This document shows, one piece after another, positions 1 to 10,077 of a DNA stretch of 20,937 nt. The translations under genes and the position numbers were made by a program. The stretch lies in IMG/VR virus record IMGVR_UViG_2713896832_000003. One strand, given 5' to 3'. Below the pieces are notes generated by a model, which saw nothing but the letters and a program-made list of their open reading frames with translations, was not told where the DNA came from and ran no database searches. How positions within the stretch are numbered: position 1 is the first letter of the stretch; every line of letters starts with the position of its first letter. Source of the stretch: a virus. Its lineage: Duplodnaviria > Heunggongvirae > Uroviricota > Caudoviricetes.

Positions 1-147
1 AATTAGGGCAGCCTTTTCGCCTGCCGGGAGTCACATTTTTCTGCATATCTGACACTTTGGTTCCCACTACTTATTTGGTGGACACCACTTTGTCTAATTT
101 GTCAGATTCTGACCAGACGGTTCAGGCTGTACGCTTACGTTAAAAAT

Positions 148-2429: not shown

Positions 2430-4901
2430 TTAAGAATCAGCCTGACTCGGGATCAGTTTTTGCCAGATAACTGAAACGTATTTTGCCTGGTAACGGGCGT
2501 CATCAAGTGCATTATGGCGCTCACCTTCGAATTGAATAGCCGTTCTGGCATCGAAGTCTATGACTTTCCCCAGCTCAACGATTGTGCGTACATCGCGATC
2601 GTTGTAGTAACGCCACGGGCAGGGGATCCCCTGCCGTTCGTATGAACGGCGCAAAATCGTGTTGTCGAAGTTGGCTCCATTCCCCCAAACCTGAACAAAA
2701 AATTCACCGGAGTTTTCGTCGATAAATTCCCGCAATTGTAACAGTGCATCATCTAACGGGATTTCATCGGTCATAATGGCAGATTGCGCTTCGCGTGATT
2801 GCTTAAGCCACCATTTAATGGTGTCCCGATCAATGACTCCGCCAGCAGTTTCCAGATCGATAGTCTTACTAAATTCCGGTCCCATATCTCCGGTTTGCGG
2901 ATCGAAAAATATTGCACCTATTGAGGTGATCGGGGCATCAGGATTTTTTCCCATGGTTTCAAGGTCGATCATTAGATGGTCACACGTCCTGCTGGTGGAT
3001 GTGATTTCGTGATGACCGTTCACCTTAATTGGGTGATCTGCCGTCTCGCCAGTTTCATTATCGCTATTGTGATGCTGATTGCCGCCAGTGTTCTCCTTGT
3101 GTGGATGTTCAGCGCCTTCCATTTCCTCCGGATCATCTTCCTGAACTTCAACCTGATACTCTTCATCGAATGTTTCTTGGTATGTTGCGTCGCCCATCAC
3201 CGCGCCACAATCAGGGCAGTTGCCGCCGCCGGTCTGACCGCAGGCGGTGCAGACTTTTTCCACTTCCTGTTGCGCTACTGGTTCAGGCTGTTTCGTTTCT
3301 GGCTCGTTTTGTAACGCATTTGGACTGTTTTGTTCCGCTTTTTGGTAGTTCCGTTCCGATTCATGCTGGTTCTGGTTCACAGAATCGCGGGTCTGGATCC
3401 CCTTAACCCATTTCGGATCATTCGGGTCACTAATCCCTTCAACAAATTCACCACGTGATGCAGCAAGCAACTTATCAGCGTCAGGCTGGCTGATATTGGC
3501 TGCCTGCATAATTTTGTTTACTTCGTCAGCGGTAACTTTTATCGGCTCTGGTTGTTCTGAATCTTCAGCGGTATCTACATTTTGCGGTAAGCCCGTGTAT
3601 GTGCCATTTTTTCGGGCAAAATATTCTTCTTTTGTGATTTCAGTGGCGCCAGCAGCCAGTGCCTTATCCAGACCAGAAAGTTTGTTTGCGCGACCGTATT
3701 TTTCTCCGTCCTTATCTGCGAAGAGGAAATAGAACGGCCCCTCACGCTCTACAGATGGTTCAGCTTCCGGCGCGGTTTCATTTTTTGGGATATCAGATAC
3801 CTCAGTTTCCACTGCATCAGTTTGTGTTTCTGATGACTGGAGAACATCAACAGTGCCCAGGTCTGTTTCTTCATTCTCAAACACGCCCTTTGTCGTCAGG
3901 TATTCGCAGATATATTTGTTCAGTGCTACGGGATCTTTGTGAATGTCGATCGGACGCTCACGGACAAGGCCAAAAATAGTTTGGCGGTCGTAGCGAAGGG
4001 CATCAGGCTGTTTGCGCATTGATGCCGAGATACGCTTCCAGTCTTCGCGGTCGTTGTCGATAACTTCTTTTTTTGCCCAGCGATGGATGCTGCCGTCAAT
4101 GTTTCCGGCATCCACATCACCAGGCCAGAGAGCGTAGGCCAGTTCGTCATCCAGTGTTTTCCATGTCTGCTTGTATTCGCGATGAATGGCAGCAATGACC
4201 GGGCTGATTTTTCCTGTTGAATTTTCAGTGTACTGTTGATTGGCTCTGGCGCGTGCGAGATCAACAACAGACGTGTATTTTCCGGTTTCCTTGCGTTCAC
4301 CTTCGCGACGTTTTTTCCAGATGCGCATCTCTGCCTGAATTTCGGGCCATTTAGCACCAGGAATACATTTATGCTTAACCCACCCAATGGCGTGCAACTT
4401 AAGCTCCGGATACATGGCGTTAACTTCTGGCATTTTCATCAACGCTTCAACGATATGTCCGTCGAATGTTGCCATGTCTTCCTGCAACAATTCCTGTGCG
4501 CTAATAACCATATCAACGGTGATGTTTTCACATGTGTCGAACTTAACCATGACAGCGTTCTGTACTTCAGGGGCCAGCTTGTCAAAAGTGACGTTCATCG
4601 GATCGGATTCAGTCTCAACCGGGACAAAAGAAGCAGACTCCTCATCCCAGCGGTTTTCCTGCATATATTCAGCATCCCATGAATCGAGGGCAGGGCGGGG
4701 TATGCCAGGTTTATCCTCGCAGACAATAAATTTATAAGCGCAGTCCTGAGCAGCCGGATAATGTTCCAGGAATTGCCAGTGAAATTTTGCTCGAGCACGG
4801 CGTTCGTCGCCAGCTTCAATGGCTGTGGCTACAGCCACAGCGCCTTCTTCCCTTGTTGCCAGTTCGTCAGGAATAGCGGCGCAAATAAAGACTTTACTCA
4901 T
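2430..4901 (-). CDS. exodeoxyribonuclease VIII-like protein: RecE-like central region with a DnaQ/DEDDh-type 3'-5' exonuclease C-terminal domain
   Basis: 823-aa ORF. The central acidic/Q-rich segment with zinc-ribbon CTACGQTGGGNCPDCG resembles the RecE middle region as I recall it. The C-terminal ~180 aa carry DEDDh-like motifs (MIDLETMG...; ...WGNGANFD...; ...HNALDDARYQAKY). Confidence 0.8.
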   Translation of the reverse strand: MSKVFICAAIPDELATREEGAVAVATAIEAGDERRARAKFHWQFLEHYPAAQDCAYKFIVCEDKPGIPRPALDSWDAEYMQENRWDEESASFVPVETESDPMNVTFDKLAPEVQNAVMVKFDTCENITVDMVISAQELLQEDMATFDGHIVEALMKMPEVNAMYPELKLHAIGWVKHKCIPGAKWPEIQAEMRIWKKRREGERKETGKYTSVVDLARARANQQYTENSTGKISPVIAAIHREYKQTWKTLDDELAYALWPGDVDAGNIDGSIHRWAKKEVIDNDREDWKRISASMRKQPDALRYDRQTIFGLVRERPIDIHKDPVALNKYICEYLTTKGVFENEETDLGTVDVLQSSETQTDAVETEVSDIPKNETAPEAEPSVEREGPFYFLFADKDGEKYGRANKLSGLDKALAAGATEITKEEYFARKNGTYTGLPQNVDTAEDSEQPEPIKVTADEVNKIMQAANISQPDADKLLAASRGEFVEGISDPNDPKWVKGIQTRDSVNQNQHESERNYQKAEQNSPNALQNEPETKQPEPVAQQEVEKVCTACGQTGGGNCPDCGAVMGDATYQETFDEEYQVEVQEDDPEEMEGAEHPHKENTGGNQHHNSDNETGETADHPIKVNGHHEITSTSRTCDHLMIDLETMGKNPDAPITSIGAIFFDPQTGDMGPEFSKTIDLETAGGVIDRDTIKWWLKQSREAQSAIMTDEIPLDDALLQLREFIDENSGEFFVQVWGNGANFDNTILRRSYERQGIPCPWRYYNDRDVRTIVELGKVIDFDARTAIQFEGERHNALDDARYQAKYVSVIWQKLIPSQADS

Positions 4902-5371: not shown

Positions 5372-5419
5372 TATCGCGTCCTCAACAATGAATTTTGTGA
5401 TGCAGTGCCTGGTGCCTCC

Positions 5420-5460
5420 AGGTGACGTTAACCAGTTAACAATTAACGTCGGATATCCGG
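5420..5460. promoter_or_regulatory. palindrome-rich divergent control region between the leftward dicB operon and the rightward replication operon
   Basis: 8-bp inverted repeat GACGTTAA (5423-5430) / TTAACGTC (5443-5450) and the 10-bp palindrome CGGATATCCG (5450-5459), in the ~250-bp gap between divergent operons. Confidence 0.3.
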
Positions 5461-5475
5461 ATTAGTGATTTCAGG

Positions 5476-5697
5476 TTGTATCGTGAGATCAGTGATGGAA
5501 AAAGTATTACGTACATGATCGCCGGGTTAAATAAAGAATATGGCGATGTGGTGGAATCCGGACTGCTTTTTGCAGATCCTGCCGTTGTAGATCGTGAAAC
5601 TGACGAACTTATAGAAAAAGCAATTGCTTTCAAGCTTGCGTATCGACAGCAATACCAACAAAAAGCTGGATGGAATTATGAGTCTTCTTTTTGCTGA
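5476..5697 (+). CDS. hypothetical small protein (TTG start as listed; internal ATG at 5515 possible); uncertain
   Basis: 73-aa ORF with protein-like composition, whereas the overlapping minus-strand ORF 5436..5633 is Ser/Thr-rich and low-complexity. No motif recognised; overlaps the start of the replication gene. Confidence 0.25.
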   Translation: MYREISDGKSITYMIAGLNKEYGDVVESGLLFADPAVVDRETDELIEKAIAFKLAYRQQYQQKAGWNYESSFC

Positions 5698-6643
5698 ACG
5701 CCCACTGGTTATAAACACGCAGCTGGCAATGAAAATTGGCTTAAACGAAGCCATTGTTTTGCAACAACTGCACTACTGGTTGAGAGATACCAACTCCGGC
5801 ATGGAATGTGATGGTGTTCGCTGGATTTATAACACAACGGAACAATGGCTGGAACAGTTCCCATTCTGGTCAGAGTCAACGTTAAAGCGCGCGTTTGCAA
5901 GTCTGAAAACGCTGGGGCTTTTGCGTTGTGAAAAGCTCAATAAATCAAAGCGCGATATGACCAATTTCTACACGATCAACTACGGGAGCGAGCTTTTAGA
6001 TGGTGGCAAATTGAGCGAATCCATCGGTTTAAAATGCGCCGCTCCATCAGGTCAAAATGACACGATGGAAGAGGTCAAAATGAAACGCTCCATTGGTTCA
6101 AAACGACTCAATGTCATCGGGTCAAAATGGCCTGATGATCTTACAGAGAATACAACAGAGATTACTACAGAGAATAAAAAGACTTCTCGTCCGGAAGCTT
6201 CGCAACCGGACCCGCAGACGGTTGAACAGGATTTTTTAACCCGACACCCTGACGCGGTTGTGTTCAGTGCGAAAAAACGCCAGTGGGGCAGCCAGGAAGA
6301 TTTGGCGTGTGCGCAGTGGATCTGGGGGCGAATCGTGAGTCTTTACGAGCAGGCCGCCAGCGATGATGGCGAGATTTCGCGACCGAAAGAACCCAACTGG
6401 ACCGCATGGGCCAACGACGTGCGCACAATGCGGATGCTGGATGGCAGAACTCACAGACAAATTTGTGAAATGTTTGGTCGGGTGCAGCGGGATCCATTCT
6501 GGGTAAAAAATATCATGAGTCCGTCAAAGCTTCGCGAAAAATGGGATGAACTGGTTATCCGCCTGGGGCGTTCGTCTGTACAGCGTTGTGTGAATCATAT
6601 TTCTGAGCCGGATACCGAAATTCCGCCGGGCTTCAGGGGGTAA
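5624..6643 (+). CDS. phage replication initiator (lambda O-like replisome organizer)
   Basis: N-terminal winged-helix-like region (MSLLFAERPLVINTQLAMKIGLNEAIVLQQLHYWL...) typical of phage initiators, and the iteron array lies inside the gene as in lambda O. Likely true start is ATG 5678 (MSLLFAERPLV). Confidence 0.75.
   Translation: MLSSLRIDSNTNKKLDGIMSLLFAERPLVINTQLAMKIGLNEAIVLQQLHYWLRDTNSGMECDGVRWIYNTTEQWLEQFPFWSESTLKRAFASLKTLGLLRCEKLNKSKRDMTNFYTINYGSELLDGGKLSESIGLKCAAPSGQNDTMEEVKMKRSIGSKRLNVIGSKWPDDLTENTTEITTENKKTSRPEASQPDPQTVEQDFLTRHPDAVVFSAKKRQWGSQEDLACAQWIWGRIVSLYEQAASDDGEISRPKEPNWTAWANDVRTMRMLDGRTHRQICEMFGRVQRDPFWVKNIMSPSKLREKWDELVIRLGRSSVQRCVNHISEPDTEIPPGFRG
6020..6129. repeat. origin-like iteron array: five 17-bp direct repeats (consensus TCCATCrGGTCAAAATG) at exact 23-bp spacing
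   Basis: Copies start at 6020, 6043, 6066, 6089 and 6112. A 23-bp period is not a multiple of 3, so the repeat is a DNA-level signal rather than an amino-acid repeat. Followed at 6140-6180 by A/T-rich ACAGAGA(A/T)TA direct repeats. Confidence 0.65.
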
Positions 6644-6683
6644 GTGTTAATTTCTGGTCATGAGGTAATTTTCAGGAGGGCTT

Positions 6684-7106
6684 GTGGCAAAAGTTTTTAC
6701 ACAAGAAGAGCGGGAAAAAATTAAAGGGCAGGTTGTTGAACTCGTACGCCGGAGTGGGCGTGAGACGTTACGGCAACTGGAAGTCAAGACAGGTGCGACA
6801 AGATATCTGATGAGCGTTCTCGCAAGAGAGCTGGTTGCCAGCGGCGATGTATACAACTCTGGTTACGGGTTATTCCCGTCTGAACAGGCGCGTAAGGACT
6901 GGCAAAATGCCCGTAAAAAGCTCTCAAGGGCAAAGCTGAAGGAACCATCTGCGGTTGATCCGGACCTTATCTGGTCATTACCTGACGGAGAAATACGTCG
7001 TTACGACAGGCGTCATAATATGATTTGTACTGAGTGTCGTAAAAGCGAAGTTATGCAGCGCATATTGTCGTTTTATCAGGGGGATGTCCGGTATTTATTG
7101 AAGTGA
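6684..7106 (+). CDS. hypothetical phage protein, 140 aa
   Basis: GTG start 6 nt after an AGGAGG RBS (6672-6677), 40 nt downstream of the replication gene; basic, protein-like composition. Confidence 0.6.
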   Translation: MAKVFTQEEREKIKGQVVELVRRSGRETLRQLEVKTGATRYLMSVLARELVASGDVYNSGYGLFPSEQARKDWQNARKKLSRAKLKEPSAVDPDLIWSLPDGEIRRYDRRHNMICTECRKSEVMQRILSFYQGDVRYLLK

Positions 7107-7174
7107 CGAGATTAAAGTGCATTAGTTCAGATGCAAATTGACATTTTGTGGCACAGGGTAGAGCTAGCGTGGTT

Positions 7175-7198
7175 GTCCGCTTTGTGCCAAGAGCGGAC
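7175..7198. repeat. palindromic repeat, copy A (GTCCGCTTTGTGCCAAGAGCGGAC)
   Basis: Imperfect hairpin with GTCCGC(T) / (A)GCGGAC arms, between the convergent 6684 gene and the GIY-YIG gene; two mismatches to copy B. Confidence 0.5.
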
Positions 7199-7235
7199 TT
7201 TGCAAAATGGGGGTTATTTCAATCAAAACGTAACG

Positions 7236-8180
7236 TCACAACCAGCCGACGCTCTCTCGCCATTTATAATTAGTAACTTTATCATTTTCGCTTATTTTTT
7301 TAGATATAGAGCGCGGCTCTCTTCCTAGATACTCAGATATTTCTATCGGGGACAAATCAAAATCAACAAGCATGACTCTAAGTTTTTCCATTTCCTTTAA
7401 AGTCCAAGGCTTGCCATAATTTTCATAAAGAGATACCTTATGCTCCCTGATAGTTCGCTTTCTCTGAGTTTCACTTTCCCTCTGAAAAATCTCGCTTTTA
7501 AATTGTGAACGGAACTCTTTACAGAAGTTGTTATCAGTTTTTTTGTTATATAGATTGCTAAAAATAAGCTGGGATGCCGGGTCTAAATCAGGTGTGTTAA
7601 TAATGAAAACTTTGACCTTTTCCATATAGGGATATTCAATTTTACCCAATATGCTTAATTGCTTTATATTAAAAAAACCTCTCAAATCAAAAGATTTAAT
7701 GAGCTTTGATTGGATTACACTTTCAATCCTGCTTGCATTTAAATAACAGTACTTTGCCATTGGAAGGGCCCATACTACCAGTTGAGGAATATATTTTTCT
7801 AATGCAATGCTCTGCCAATCAGTATCAAAGGTTTGGCTTTTTGCTAGCATGTTTTTCGGCAAATCAGAATACATTGTGGTAGATGCCCATATCTTATAAT
7901 CATTCGCCAAGGCTTGATAGTATTTTGTGTGGTTATGAATTTTATAAGCTGACATGAAGCGATAAACGTCTTCGTCGTGACCAGCGTCGTAAATTGTTCG
8001 ATTTCCTCTAAGATAACCGTCGTAATGTTCGGTTATCCTTCTACCTACATTACAACTTACCCCAACGTAAACCACACGACTGAAAAGTCCTTTATGGACA
8101 ATAAGATAAACTCCGCTACAGCCAGATTTCCTGGCCTCTGATAGAGAACCTAAAAATCTCCATTCCATAATTAAATCCAT
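7236..8180 (-). CDS. GIY-YIG nuclease-domain protein with a C-terminal putative HTH region
   Basis: N-terminal SGVYLIVHKGLFSRVVYVGVSCNVGRRITEH fits the GIY...YIG...R...E pattern of GIY-YIG nucleases. The C-terminal ~60 aa (PWTLKEMEKLRVMLVDFDLSPIEISEYLGREPRSISKKIS) are HTH-like. AT-rich coding sequence. Confidence 0.7.
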   Translation of the reverse strand: MDLIMEWRFLGSLSEARKSGCSGVYLIVHKGLFSRVVYVGVSCNVGRRITEHYDGYLRGNRTIYDAGHDEDVYRFMSAYKIHNHTKYYQALANDYKIWASTTMYSDLPKNMLAKSQTFDTDWQSIALEKYIPQLVVWALPMAKYCYLNASRIESVIQSKLIKSFDLRGFFNIKQLSILGKIEYPYMEKVKVFIINTPDLDPASQLIFSNLYNKKTDNNFCKEFRSQFKSEIFQRESETQRKRTIREHKVSLYENYGKPWTLKEMEKLRVMLVDFDLSPIEISEYLGREPRSISKKISENDKVTNYKWRESVGWL

Positions 8181-8348
8181 AATTATTGCTACTGTTTTTG
8201 TTTATCATTATTTTCGTGAAACTTCAACAATTTTATCCAAAAGCTAAGGGCAAAGACTTATATAATTATACTTGTCATCGTTAGCGATTATATAGAGTAG
8301 TGGCGCTGACCTGCTCCCTGGTGATTCACACAGAATGCTGTTAGTAAT

Positions 8349-8372
8349 GTCCGTTCCTCGCTCTCAGCGGAC
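8349..8372. repeat. palindromic repeat, copy D (GTCCGTTCCTCGCTCTCAGCGGAC)
   Basis: Same arm sequences as copies A, B and C; about 170 nt upstream of the GIY-YIG gene start. Confidence 0.45.
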
Positions 8373-8390
8373 CTTCAGCTCAGTGATATC

Positions 8391-8727: not shown

Positions 8728-10077
8728 TTATTCCGTTTTACATATCATAGTAGTCGATTGGAGAATATAGTTTCTGGGAATGTACTCTTCAAAGTGTTCG
8801 TCCTTTTTAAATACATGAACTACATTTGGGAATAATTGATAGTCAACAGGGTGTATAGCGTTTGGATTATGGTACATGTACATGGCTGTACACCATGGTT
8901 CTTGATAGTTAGGGTCACTTACATCGGCTGAAAATGGATGTGGGGCTGCATCCTGATCAGTTTTAACACCACTGACGTACACTTTGAATCCACTCGCCTC
9001 TACACCTGCAAGAATTCCCATCCGGTTAAACTTAGGTATGGTTGCTTGAGTAGTGAGTAAAACGGCAGAAACATAATTATTTTGTTCTGAGCCAAAAAAG
9101 TTCGACTTGATACTTCTATTTTCATCTGTATGTCTTTCAATAGAAATGCCTGACTCAATATCAATCCCGTACAAATAGCTATGCAAGGCTTCGCTTGAGA
9201 AGGCCATGGACATTCTTTTTGAATAATCCTGCATTGCTATGACAAATGGTTTGTTCTTTGTATGGTTGAGTTCCCAGTAATGAACTTTCTCTGGCTCAGG
9301 GCAATGCCGGACTTTTTTTAATAAACTTCTTGCAAACTTAAAAGGCATGACATTTAGAACATGTTTTCTTAATTCATCCATCTGTTCATCGTTAATGACT
9401 TTTCTTTCAAGAGGGGCTTCTGCTTCAGCAATGCTTACAGCCTCTACAGCAATTTCCACTCCAAATTTAGATAGCAGAAAATCTGGTTGATTGTATTCTC
9501 TATTCATTTCAAAGTCGAGTTCATAAAATACAGCGTTCAAATATAATTCAAATAACCTTGAATTAAATGCATCACTTTGAAAATCCCTTATAAATATTCC
9601 ATCAGGATCTTTGAACCAGTATGCAAGTTCCTCAAGAACAATATATGCAGGGAAATGAAGAGGGTCTTCGAGGAGCATTTTTATATAAACATTCCTTTTT
9701 TTCGCTGGGACCTTACTCAAGAATAATGAAAAAGGTTTGGTTGATTCATCGCCTTGCATGAATGTACCATTTTGGTGCTGCGCCAGCATCTTTGGTATGT
9801 CATCGTTCAAATTATTAAGCAAGACATCCATTGAATCAAATGAAGCCAAGACGTTTATTGCTCTGAATTTTTTATCTAAATCCCGACCTAAGACTATTGC
9901 GTTAAAATCTTTATCAATATTGCATATGATTATTGTGGATAACAATGTTATCCCATTCCCCTCATATTTAAACCAGCGTATCTCCTCAGAAAATGTCTTA
10001 AGGTAAGGTGAGCGACCGTAAAAATAAATATCAAATTGTTCTTTGCTGATCTCACTGAAGTGTAATCCTGCGTTCAT
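8728..10077 (-). CDS. hypothetical protein, 449 aa, no recognised domain
   Basis: Long AT-rich ORF with an AAAAGGAA RBS before the ATG, upstream of and co-oriented with the GIY-YIG gene. A hairpin-plus-T-rich terminator candidate lies on the minus strand around 8672-8700. Confidence 0.7.
   Translation of the reverse strand: MNAGLHFSEISKEQFDIYFYGRSPYLKTFSEEIRWFKYEGNGITLLSTIIICNIDKDFNAIVLGRDLDKKFRAINVLASFDSMDVLLNNLNDDIPKMLAQHQNGTFMQGDESTKPFSLFLSKVPAKKRNVYIKMLLEDPLHFPAYIVLEELAYWFKDPDGIFIRDFQSDAFNSRLFELYLNAVFYELDFEMNREYNQPDFLLSKFGVEIAVEAVSIAEAEAPLERKVINDEQMDELRKHVLNVMPFKFARSLLKKVRHCPEPEKVHYWELNHTKNKPFVIAMQDYSKRMSMAFSSEALHSYLYGIDIESGISIERHTDENRSIKSNFFGSEQNNYVSAVLLTTQATIPKFNRMGILAGVEASGFKVYVSGVKTDQDAAPHPFSADVSDPNYQEPWCTAMYMYHNPNAIHPVDYQLFPNVVHVFKKDEHFEEYIPRNYILQSTTMICKTE

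Follow-up and report, generated by a model that had tools for sequence, protein, structure and literature searches.

Sequence comparison suggests, with a probability that we put at about 85%, that positions 5997-6180 of the 20,937-nucleotide stretch of viral DNA analyzed here (the window) form the replication origin of a lambdoid prophage of the Qin / CP-933O / mEp460 type and that this origin is located inside the linker-coding middle part of the initiator gene of the prophage. In our literature search, no paper describing the origin of this phage family was found; an earlier in silico mention is possible. Searches with the motif strings and with YdaU/YdaV/oriJ did not return anything relevant. 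The coordinates of the features are summarized in Table 1.

Table 1. Features of the putative origin, of the surrounding initiator gene and of its neighborhood (positions in the window)
Feature	Position	Strand	Basis and remarks
Deletion junction	5451..5455		blastn of the window against phage mEp460_ev081
Initiator gene, 321 aa (RefSeq WP_000054501.1, 'hypothetical protein')	5678..6643	+	Open reading frame and annotation; PHROG 391; BLASTP; AlphaFold2
Coding part, N-terminal winged-helix domain (~aa 1-108), presumed iteron-binding	5678..6001	+	pLDDT 70-87; helices and a beta hairpin
'Unit 0', degenerate, in phase (TAGATGGTGGCAAATTG)	5997..6013	+	23 bp upstream of the first clear iteron; 23-bp register; weak in the window
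Iteron array, five units	6020..6137	+	Repeat search and dyad scoring; same array in phage mEp460_ev081
Three tandem 12-mers, ACAGAGA(A/T)TA(C/A)N	6143..6178	+	TRF and repeat search; A/T-rich, top strand purine-rich
Coding part, C-terminal domain (aa 183-295), helical; homology to the C-domain of lambda O	6224..6562	+	tblastn, BLASTP, AlphaFold2
Candidate inverted iteron-like site (reverse complement TCGGGTTAAAAAATCCTG)	6227..6244	-	Weak; beyond the A/T-rich stretch; inverted-repeat pairs with iterons 5 and 1
Coding part, C-terminal tail (VQRCVNHISEPDTEIPPGFRG)	6578..6640	+	Match to the ~20-29 residues at the end of E. coli DnaT
DUF977 gene, at the lambda ren position	6684..7106	+	Pfam PF06163, E 1.3e-28; PHROG 142 'Ren-like exclusion protein'

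The initial annotation of this region had described five 17-bp repeats at an exact 23-bp period. We found that five repeats are indeed present on the plus strand with starting positions at 6020 (TCCATCGGTTTAAAATG), 6043 (TCCATCAGGTCAAAATG), 6066 (TGGAAGAGGTCAAAATG), 6089 (TCCATTGGTTCAAAACG), and 6113 (GTCATCGGGTCAAAATG), but since the fifth 17-mer starts at 6113 instead of 6112, the last spacing is 24 bp. A separate repeat search agreed with the resulting series of 23, 23, 23, and 24 bp. The left side of the third 17-mer is weak and this copy carries four mismatches to the consensus. When the window was searched with the 17-mer consensus allowing up to three mismatches, we obtained five matches, four of which were located inside the array. 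In 100 shuffled versions of the window, the mean was 0.17 matches and the count never reached five. A lone weaker match outside the array was observed at position 8920.

It is more accurate to treat the units as 23-bp dyads (6022-6044, 6045-6067, 6068-6090, 6091-6113, and 6115-6137) with CAAAATG or CAAAACG at their centers, and the 17-mer represents the left part of such a dyad. Out of 11 arm positions, 5, 8, 5, 7, and 8 were self-complementary in the five consecutive units. For random 23-mers, a mean of 2.8 self-complementary positions was calculated and the probability of reaching at least 8 was 0.002; units 1 and 3 must be considered poor dyads. At the position of the degenerate 'unit 0', seven relatives (L004, L013-L018) carry GATGAGGTCAAAGTG, which is better preserved than the window copy. 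The peptides encoded by the repeats (SIGLK, PSGQND, EVKMK, SIGSK, VIGSK) make use of all three reading frames. Thus, a codon repeat is excluded, as had already been argued from the 23-bp period.

Immediately downstream of the array, three 12-bp units (ACAGAGAATACA, ACAGAGATTACT, ACAGAGAATAAA) follow each other in tandem, which bears out the A/T-rich stretch with ACAGAGA(A/T)TA repeats reported initially. The A+T content of the region 6130-6182 amounts to 66%, compared with 51% for the whole gene, and 70% of its top-strand bases are purines; the stretch is short and only modestly A/T-rich. By their position, which matches that of the A/T-rich tract of lambda, the 12-mers are inferred to be a candidate DNA-unwinding and helicase-entry element. 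They were present in all 34 viral loci that share the N-terminal domain of the window initiator and in none of the 45 loci in which another N-terminal domain is joined to the same C-terminal domain. A reading-frame test of the 12-mers was dropped, since they are nearly always in frame 0 and conservation of DNA and of peptide is inseparable by frame; codon-position and synonymous-codon tests were used in its place. Among eight enterobacterial homologues, the third codon positions of the 12-mers were conserved to 98% and the second positions to 85%. Moreover, the T-E-x-T units of the linker, which occur in 19 of the 22 scanned genes (GC content 36-60%), used ACA-GAG in 38 of 38 cases, compared with frequencies of 26% for ACA and 41% for GAG elsewhere in the same genes; the codon statistics are phylogenetically non-independent. 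Because the 12-mers are always in frame 0, a conserved peptide (TExT) may contribute to their preservation. Being kept beside variable iterons across phyla, they may represent a sequence-specific element for origin opening, which would be unusual.

The array occupies nucleotides 343-460 and the 12-mers nucleotides 466-501 of the initiator gene, and both are located within the part encoding the linker (amino acids 109-175), which AlphaFold2 predicts to be disordered (pLDDT < 50). In principle, slippage or duplication might have left the repeats behind in a linker that tolerates them, or the repeats might encode a repeated peptide; in either case they would be functionless as DNA. Such an explanation is in line with two E. 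coli copies (P0016, P0020) that tolerate an in-frame collapse of 93 nt between iterons 1 and 5, and with the predicted disorder of the segment. The distribution of the copies over three reading frames argues against it, and so does the conservation pattern. Among the eight enterobacterial homologues, the iteron part was 78-82% identical and lacked codon periodicity (p 0.29), whereas identity was only 69-73% in the part encoding the folded N-terminal domain, where variation at third positions was clear (permutation p 0.0005). Similarly, only 1 of the 65 nucleotide differences between the window gene and its counterpart in phage mEp460_ev081 falls into gene nucleotides 337-500. To judge from these patterns, selection on the cassette is acting at the DNA level.

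Absence of the iterons from homologous initiator genes, which had been named as an argument against an origin, was not what we found. Arrays with a period of 21-23 bp are present at the same gene place in homologues from Enterobacterales, Edwardsiella, a Pseudomonas phage, a Hydrogenimonas MAG, Bacillaceae, and Deferribacterales, and this is also the case for Staphylococcus phage phiIPLA88 and Bacillus phage TP21-L. The array score ranged between 0.55 and 0.95 in 25 of the 40 sequences scanned (window included), and a value of 0.55 was reached by only 3% of the 1-kb flank blocks. The iteron core CAAAWTG is constant among these relatives, its flanks vary by lineage, and the same 12-mers come next. 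Arrays that share this core occupy an equivalent site in different phyla. On these comparative grounds, we regard a functionless by-product as highly improbable. A scan of viral contigs with the alignment of the C-terminal domain returned only near-identical loci (at least 94%) and provides counts but no diversity. Elsewhere in the window, a period-21 signal was seen at about position 3266 in the exonuclease gene; it was rejected as a repeat family, as it reflects a low-complexity coding stretch rich in Q, E, and N.

The placement of the array inside an initiator gene, as stated in the initial annotation, is well supported by the properties of the encoded protein. It matched PHROG 391 ('replication initiation O-like') with an E-value of 4.5e-95, and in BLASTP, its C-terminal domain was 35% identical to lambda O over 148 residues (147-294; E 4e-28). 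The tblastn matches were the O genes of lambda and of Stx phages. No Pfam family was assigned to the protein at E <= 0.01. The N-terminal part of lambda O remained without a significant BLASTP alignment, and judged by this comparison, the N-terminal domain of the window initiator is not of the lambda O type. The best fold matches of the predicted N-terminal domain were the N-terminal domains in plasmid Rep/iteron complexes (5kbj_H, 4pql_A), but these matches are weak (E 0.017-0.05, TM 0.55 on target, ~18% identity) and generic winged-helix regulators scored nearly equally well. The N-terminal domain was always found together with the cassette of iterons and 12-mers.

We compared this organization with the ori layout of Stx phages and lambda (PMC7466680). 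As in ori-lambda, the putative origin lies in the middle part of the initiator gene and involves 4-6 dyad iterons with a spacing of ~20-24 bp and central A-tracts (ATCCCTCAAAACGAGGGA in lambda). In lambda, the first iteron begins at nucleotide 349 of O and the iterons are spaced 20, 24, and 23 bp apart, so that the array of the window, starting at gene nucleotide 343, has almost the same place; the arrangement of ori-lambda within O, which had been suggested before, was thus recovered. In both systems, A/T-rich DNA whose top strand is rich in purines is located downstream of the iterons, and a gene at the ren position follows the replication module. The A/T tract of lambda is probably more extreme than the 66% A+T of region 6130-6182. 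Unlike lambda, the window encodes an N-terminal domain that is unrelated by sequence, its iteron sequence is different, and specific ACAGAGAWTAC 12-mers are present where lambda has a generic A/T tract. Furthermore, the window lacks a P gene and its initiator ends with a DnaT-type tail, whereas lambda O ends with ...DWIYGVDL.

This layout also bears on two other interpretations. The array might be a cluster of initiator binding sites serving regulation (autoregulatory roadblock, handcuffing/incompatibility), with the true origin located elsewhere. Iteron-binding initiators such as those of iteron plasmids commonly autoregulate, and the single weaker 17-mer match at 8920 would be in line with this scenario. 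We nevertheless consider it unlikely: iterons with an adjoining A/T-rich repeat reproduce the ori-lambda layout at the same gene place, the iteron/12-mer cluster is unique in the 45.9-kb genome of mEp460_ev081, and the 12-mers, which are the most conserved part, would not have an obvious role in a pure operator model. Still less probable is that the array is another cis site located in the gene by chance, for example a pac site for packaging or a centromere for partition. Such sites can be short intragenic repeat arrays, but there are no adjacent partition genes, the terminase genes of the intact phage are ~30 kb away, and the array co-varies with the DNA-binding domain of the initiator across phages whose packaging and other modules are unrelated. 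DnaA boxes were not detected in or near the putative origin and their counts across the window were at chance level. A search of positions 5400-7300 for structured RNA did not give any Rfam match at E <= 1.

Initiator genes with embedded origins are found beyond the lambdoid phages. The initiators of the RepA_N type (5kbj, 4pql) provided the best, though weak, structural matches to the predicted N-terminal domain, and no Pfam match was obtained that would place the initiator in RepA_N by sequence. RepA_N replicons likewise carry iterons inside the rep gene. For replisome organizers of Gram-positive phages (SPP1 G38P with oriL inside gene 38; 80alpha ORF20), an origin embedded in the organizer gene has been described (PMC5499656). 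Homology of the window initiator to SPP1 G38P was rejected, since there was no BLASTP similarity and the SPP1 repeats differ (11 bp). In contrast, phiIPLA88 gp17 and TP21-L gp32 share an N-terminal domain like that of the window (46% and 39% identity, respectively) together with the same cassette of iterons and 12-mers. The Gram-positive members join this cassette to a DnaD-type C-terminal domain (PF07261 DnaB_2, seen in phiIPLA88 gp17), and phiIPLA88 encodes its own loader and a DnaB-like helicase adjacent to the cassette, both of which are absent from the window. The neighbors of TP21-L gp32 are annotated without names.

The initial annotation had failed to recognize a P-like helicase loader or a DnaC homologue downstream of the initiator, which made replication competence uncertain. 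Our tblastn searches agreed with this: homologues of lambda P, DnaC, and DnaB were not found anywhere in the window. The protein encoded at 6684-7106, which had been proposed for comparison with loader families, is by its family assignment not a helicase loader but a DUF977 or Ren-like exclusion protein; in relatives, its gene comes after the loader gene where one exists. The 45.9-kb genome of mEp460_ev081, which carries a full set of structural genes, also lacks P, DnaC, and DnaB, and among 32 related viral loci, 21 were loaderless, while 11 carried a DnaC homologue 7 nt past the stop codon. The concern about the missing loader is softened because mEp460_ev081 and these 21 contigs are equally loaderless. 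In a recent study (Genome Res 2025, PMC12315714), O-only replication modules are recognized in phage LLS and in 34 of 314 lambdoid phages of Enterobacterales, which is about a tenth of these phages, and their replication is described as not understood. The same study names mEp460_4F5 as closest relative of the repressor and Cro proteins of LLS. The window and mEp460_ev081 share the LLS-type layout reported there, a single O-homologue gene without a helicase or loader gene. This likeness is one of gene layout, and the passages of PMC12315714 consulted do not describe an origin for the O-only modules.

The C-terminal tail of the initiator may offer a hint to helicase recruitment. In phmmer, it matched three PDB chains (2ru8_A, 6aep_A, 9zbt_D), and hhalign aligned it with DnaT with a probability of 88% and an E-value of 3.3e-6, covering the last 29 residues only. 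The NCBIfam DnaT model scored 17 bits compared with a cut-off of 201. Since the similarity is confined to the last ~29 residues, the initiator is not a DnaT homologue overall. The extreme C-terminus is common to DnaT, YdaU of the Rac prophage (VNTVSLPDSAIPPGFRG), and the window initiator (VNHISEPDTEIPPGFRG). In dnaT-dnaC, in ydaU-ydaV, and in 40 of 76 viral loci, the gene of the tail-bearing protein is directly followed by a DnaC-type gene; unlike dnaT-dnaC and ydaU-ydaV, the window lacks such a gene. We also considered that the tail might replace the loader, in which case the two should exclude each other; this idea was rejected, as these 40 of the 76 tail-bearing viral loci do have an adjacent DnaC homologue. 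The DnaT-type tail accompanies either DnaC-type loaders or none, and initiators with other tails precede lambda P homologues. The DnaT-like tail may explain how such phages replicate without their own helicase loader. The preprimosome paper gives no role for the last ~20 residues of DnaT, and our literature search did not turn up a connection of DnaT with lambdoid modules.

The window itself represents a decayed lambda-like E. coli prophage that is probably inert. At the deletion junction, ~2.28 kb of the mEp460_ev081 sequence are missing, namely the repressor gene and a cro-like gene, along with the promoters of both, as well as the 5' portion of the cII-like/YdaT gene. RefSeq lists 5455-5697 as a pseudogene lacking its N-terminus. 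Upstream of the initiator in the window copy, no promoter signal above chance was detected. The origin DNA and the reading frame of the initiator are intact, and the late genes are truncated. A lambda-type origin is activated by rightward transcription from pR. Since this copy has lost pR together with the immunity region and its late genes are cut short, the putative origin probably stays silent unless there is another route to initiator expression.

Taken together, these data are consistent with the following scenario for an intact phage. The O-like initiator, as predicted, comprises a winged-helix N-terminal domain, a disordered linker, a lambda O-like C-terminal domain, and a DnaT-like tail. 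Dimers of the N-terminal domain would bind to the 23-bp dyad iterons, and the spacing of about two helical turns together with the central A-tracts would place the iterons on roughly one face of the helix, so that a wrapped complex similar to the O-some may be formed. Stress would then open the adjacent ACAGAGAWTAC 12-mers, as suggested by where they lie, by their A/T richness and strand asymmetry, and by their conservation at the DNA level. In the least certain step, the C-terminal domain and the DnaT-type tail would recruit the host DnaB via a DnaC-type loader; in the loaderless version, the host's own DnaC might take the place of lambda P.

A more far-reaching proposal, which we regard as speculative and rather doubtful at present, is that iterons, 12-mers, and winged-helix domain form one ancient portable origin-initiator unit common to phages of Proteobacteria, Bacillota, Campylobacterota, and Deferribacterota. 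The 12-mers would be read by the initiator itself as opening or helicase-entry element, and the ...IPxGFRG tail would be a portable recruiter of DnaC-type loaders or of the host DnaB-DnaC. If this were true, the portable tail would explain how O-only lambdoid phages replicate, and the dnaT-dnaC operon of E. coli would descend from a prophage initiator-loader pair of this sort. A concrete handle, testable by mutation, is offered by the DnaT-type tail together with its occurrence alongside DnaC-type loaders or no loader instead of P. The basic picture of lambda-type initiation is unchanged by these findings. In thousands of enterobacterial genomes, the initiator gene carries the annotation 'hypothetical protein'; it lacks a Pfam family, and its putative identity as an origin-bearing initiator would give a function to a very common prophage gene.

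When we inspected the repeat region, we found that the 17-mer is present in five same-strand copies starting at window positions 6020, 6043, 6066, 6089, and 6113. The initial annotation had described five iterons of exact 23-bp periodicity. The copy number was confirmed, but since the fifth copy begins one base later than was written there, the spacings are 23, 23, 23, and 24 bp, and a separate repeat search agreed with these values. With the 17-mer consensus (up to three mismatches), five matches were obtained in the window, four of them within the array, and shuffled controls yielded a mean of 0.17 matches, with none of 100 shuffles reaching five. The left side of the third copy matches weakly. 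A 23-bp dyad centered on CAAAATG describes the units better, and dyad scores of 5, 8, 5, 7, and 8 (of 11 arm positions) were determined in order; random 23-mers scored 2.8 on average and reached 8 with P = 0.002. Since the copies occupy all three reading frames, the earlier argument that the array is not a codon repeat is correct. The A/T-rich stretch with ACAGAGA-type repeats that had been reported 3' of the iterons was also recovered; it holds three 12-bp units (12-mers), its A+T content is 66% versus 51% for the initiator gene, and its top strand is 70% purine.

Positions of the features discussed (window nucleotides unless residues of the initiator are indicated)
Feature	Position	Sequence	Remark
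Deletion junction	5451-5455
Truncated cII-like/YdaT remnant	5455-5697
Initiator gene	5678-6643 (+)		321 aa
Degenerate iteron unit	5997-6013		in phase
Dyad unit	6045-6067	CATCAGGTCAAAATGACACGATG	8/11 arm positions self-complementary
Dyad unit	6115-6137	CATCGGGTCAAAATGGCCTGATG	8/11 arm positions self-complementary
GATC (Dam) site	6137-6140	GATGATCTTACAGAGA	exactly between last iteron and first 12-mer
Three 12-bp units	6143-6178	ACAGAGAATACA, ACAGAGATTACT, ACAGAGAATAAA
Inverted iteron-like sequence	6227-6244	TCGGGTTAAAAAATCCTG (reverse complement)	far side of A/T-rich stretch
DnaT-like tail	6578-6640	VQRCVNHISEPDTEIPPGFRG	last 20-29 residues
Insert	7203-8390		~1.2 kb
ORF in insert	7236-8180 (-)		314 aa
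ORF, PHROG 8571	8728-10077 (-)		449 aa, E 5e-120
Folded N-domain	residues ~10-105		helices and beta hairpin (AlphaFold2)
Low-confidence segment	residues 109-175		pLDDT < 50, no secondary structure (AlphaFold2)
Helical C-domain	residues 183-295		AlphaFold2

Two further sites flank the 12-mers. The GATGATCC/T junction, at which the GATC site is located, is common to most enterobacterial relatives (9 of the 11 displayed; the compared sequences L016 and L018 are without it), and a Dam or MT-A70 methylase gene lies just downstream in several related phages. The inverted iteron-like sequence recalls the palindrome right of ori-lambda.

The initial annotation had considered that homologous initiator genes might be devoid of iterons, but arrays with periods of 21-23 bp were found in those of relatives. 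In phage mEp460_ev081 the gene is 96% identical and the array identical, and the iterons of a Klebsiella phage are of the same type and stand in the 23-bp register. Pantoea phage AH07 (N-domain 53% identical) carries another palindromic iteron of the GAGGGCAAATTGCCCTC type at exact 23-bp spacing. A search with the winged-helix N-domain, restricted to one genome per species, yielded 43 loci, and the periodicity scan covered 40 sequences (34 of these loci, four earlier phage loci, one Escherichia albertii copy, and the window). For 25 of the 40, the best in-gene periodic signal was a 21-23-bp array starting just 3' of the N-domain coding part, and only 3% of 1-kb flank blocks reached an equal periodicity score. 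Arrays of Enterobacterales, Edwardsiella, a Pseudomonas phage, and a Hydrogenimonas MAG have a period of 23 bp, those of Bacillaceae one of 22 bp, and those of Deferribacterales one of 21 bp; the center CAAAWTG is constant and the arms differ by lineage.

Directly 3' of the array, (T)ACAGAGAnTAC occurs one to five times in almost all genes with this N-domain, and the same layout (array plus 12-mers) was found for Staphylococcus phage phiIPLA88 gp17 and Bacillus phage TP21-L gp32. Among 80 viral contigs sharing the C-domain of the window initiator, 12-mers were present in 34/34 with this N-domain versus 0/45 with another one, and therefore they are linked to the DNA-binding domain, not to the C-domain. 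When another N-domain is combined with the same C-domain, another array is found (GTCAAAATCTGACNC, 15-bp spacing). Two such sequences, L003 (array at 4127-4249) and L007 (3138-3260), combine an HTH_36-type N-domain with this C-domain and carry the array mid-gene; its 15-bp spacing fits codons, the encoded peptide has SDxSK-type repeats, and no ACAGAGA 12-mers were detected in either initiator.

Conservation was quantified in eight enterobacterial homologues. Over the N-domain coding part they share 69-73% identity with the window and exhibit the usual third-position variation (codon-position conservation 0.95, 0.97, 0.75; period-3 permutation p 0.0005). Over the iteron part, identity is 78-82% and codon periodicity is lacking (0.90, 0.92, 0.89; p 0.29). 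In the 12-mers, third positions are 98% and second positions 85% conserved; the amino acid varies (N, I, S) and synonymous sites are fixed. The T-E-x-T units of the linker are encoded by ACA-GAG in 38 of 38 cases, stemming from the 19 of 22 scanned genes that have such a unit (GC 36-60%); elsewhere in the same genes the shares of ACA and GAG are 26% and 41% (Fisher p 3e-20 and 2e-12, with counts that are not phylogenetically independent). Between the window and mEp460_ev081, 65 of 966 gene positions differ, only one of them within gene nt 337-500. In some E. coli copies, iterons 1 to 5 are reduced to a single one by an in-frame deletion of 93 nt; the reading frame thus does not depend on the linker peptide, and recombination occurs between the repeats. 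The E. coli proteins P0016 and P0020 are natural 290-aa variants of this kind, in which 31 aa (aligned to window 6023-6115) are missing and a single iteron is left. The deletion is as long as the interval between iterons 1 and 5; repeat-mediated collapse is the probable cause, and such single-iteron copies are presumably origin-dead.

The initiator is named 'hypothetical protein' in RefSeq and matched no Pfam family, but it aligned end-to-end with PHROG 391 'replication initiation O-like' (E 4.5e-95), and its residues 147-294 resemble the C-terminal half of lambda O (35% identity, E 4e-28). About 4,300 homologues were found; among the best 120, all source-given names were 'hypothetical protein' except for one N-terminally extended form ('toxin YdaT family protein'). 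The AlphaFold2 model consists of three parts (see table), and the iterons (aa 115-153) and 12-mers (aa 156-167) fall wholly inside the low-confidence segment. The best structural matches of the N-domain were the N-terminal domains of the plasmid Rep/iteron complexes 5kbj and 4pql, but the scores were weak and generic winged-helix regulators scored close behind.

Taken together, the strong comparative evidence, which is the main support, favors the earlier suggestion that this region is an origin embedded in the initiator gene, arranged like ori-lambda within O. Like lambda-type origins, it lies midway in the initiator gene, has dyad iterons that are spaced by about two turns and contain a central A-tract, and is followed downstream by an A/T-rich tract whose top strand is rich in purines; the C-domain is homologous as well. 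In contrast to lambda, the DNA-binding domain falls outside the lambda O family and P is lacking. The N-domain and the origin cassette also occur in replisome-organiser genes of Gram-positive phages; the studied organiser SPP1 G38P has different repeats and no sequence similarity between it and the window initiator was found.

The initial annotation had recognised no P-like loader or DnaC homologue downstream, and our homology search detected no lambda P, DnaC, or DnaB homologue in the window. The next gene, which had been considered as a possible loader, instead matches DUF977 (PHROGs label 'Ren-like exclusion protein') and occupies the position of lambda ren. Since no loader or helicase homologue was found in the 45.9-kb mEp460_ev081 genome, which has a full structural gene set and in which the iteron cluster is unique, and since DUF977 follows immediately in 21 of the 32 viral contigs that have this N-domain and extend far enough downstream, loader absence is not a window-specific defect. 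In the remaining 11, a DnaC-like gene (about 50% identity to E. coli DnaC) begins 7 nt past the initiator stop.

With its last 20-29 residues, the initiator aligns to the extreme C-terminus of E. coli DnaT, the rest of which gave no match. The tail (...SEPDTEIPPGFRG) recurs as VNTVSLPDSAIPPGFRG in YdaU of the E. coli K-12 Rac prophage (L139, 1620-2477), a DUF1376 protein that is unrelated to the initiator and is followed by the DnaC-like YdaV. It is also present on initiators with other C-domains (such as that of Pantoea AH07, with Phg_2220_C, and those of several enterobacterial loci) and with other N-domains. When this N-domain is combined with another ending (...HWNSPEAWENTL, ...DWNSADGWEDVL; compare ...DWIYGVDL of lambda O), a lambda-P homologue came next in all three cases found. 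Across relatives, tail type thus follows loader type: the DnaT type occurs where the loader is of the DnaC type or absent, and the lambda-type ending occurs together with P. In the host, dnaT lies next to dnaC, in the order also seen for the tail-bearing gene and the DnaC-type gene, and dnaC is regarded as a domesticated phage gene (PMC5109545). The tail, whose counterpart in DnaT is assigned no function in the literature we found, may recruit either a DnaC-type loader or the DnaB-DnaC complex of the host.

The window represents E. coli chromosome adjoining rspB with a decayed Qin-like lambdoid prophage, which carries integrase, excisionase, an 823-aa exonuclease, ydfD and dicB, the truncated cII-like/YdaT gene, the initiator, and then DUF977. 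Compared with mEp460_ev081, it lacks 2.28 kb that include the repressor and a cro-like gene with the promoters of both, as well as the 5' portion of cII-like/YdaT, and the prophage is without an immunity region; dicB and ydfD are retained. The matching genome has truncated late genes. The insert, absent from the otherwise collinear mEp460_ev081, may be a mobile insertion; its ORF gave only a faint N-terminal match to the group I intron endonuclease model TIGR01453 (E 0.027, 14.5 bits). The DNA of the 449-aa ORF is 99.6% identical to mEp460_ev081, far above the ~91% of the neighboring early region, which suggests recent exchange. Lambda origins require rightward transcription from pR (PMC7466680). 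No convincing promoter was found upstream of the initiator; origin DNA and initiator reading frame are intact, and the element is probably silent in place.

Our literature search retrieved no description of this origin, its 12-mers, or the tail, although an earlier in silico mention in older replication-module reviews is possible. According to a 2025 study (PMC12315714), 34 of 314 enterobacterial lambdoid phages carry only an O homologue, and their replication mode is not understood. What makes the present data of interest is that the 12-mers are conserved in different phyla and that tail type is tied to loader type, a tie through which the question of how O-only lambdoid phages replicate becomes testable.
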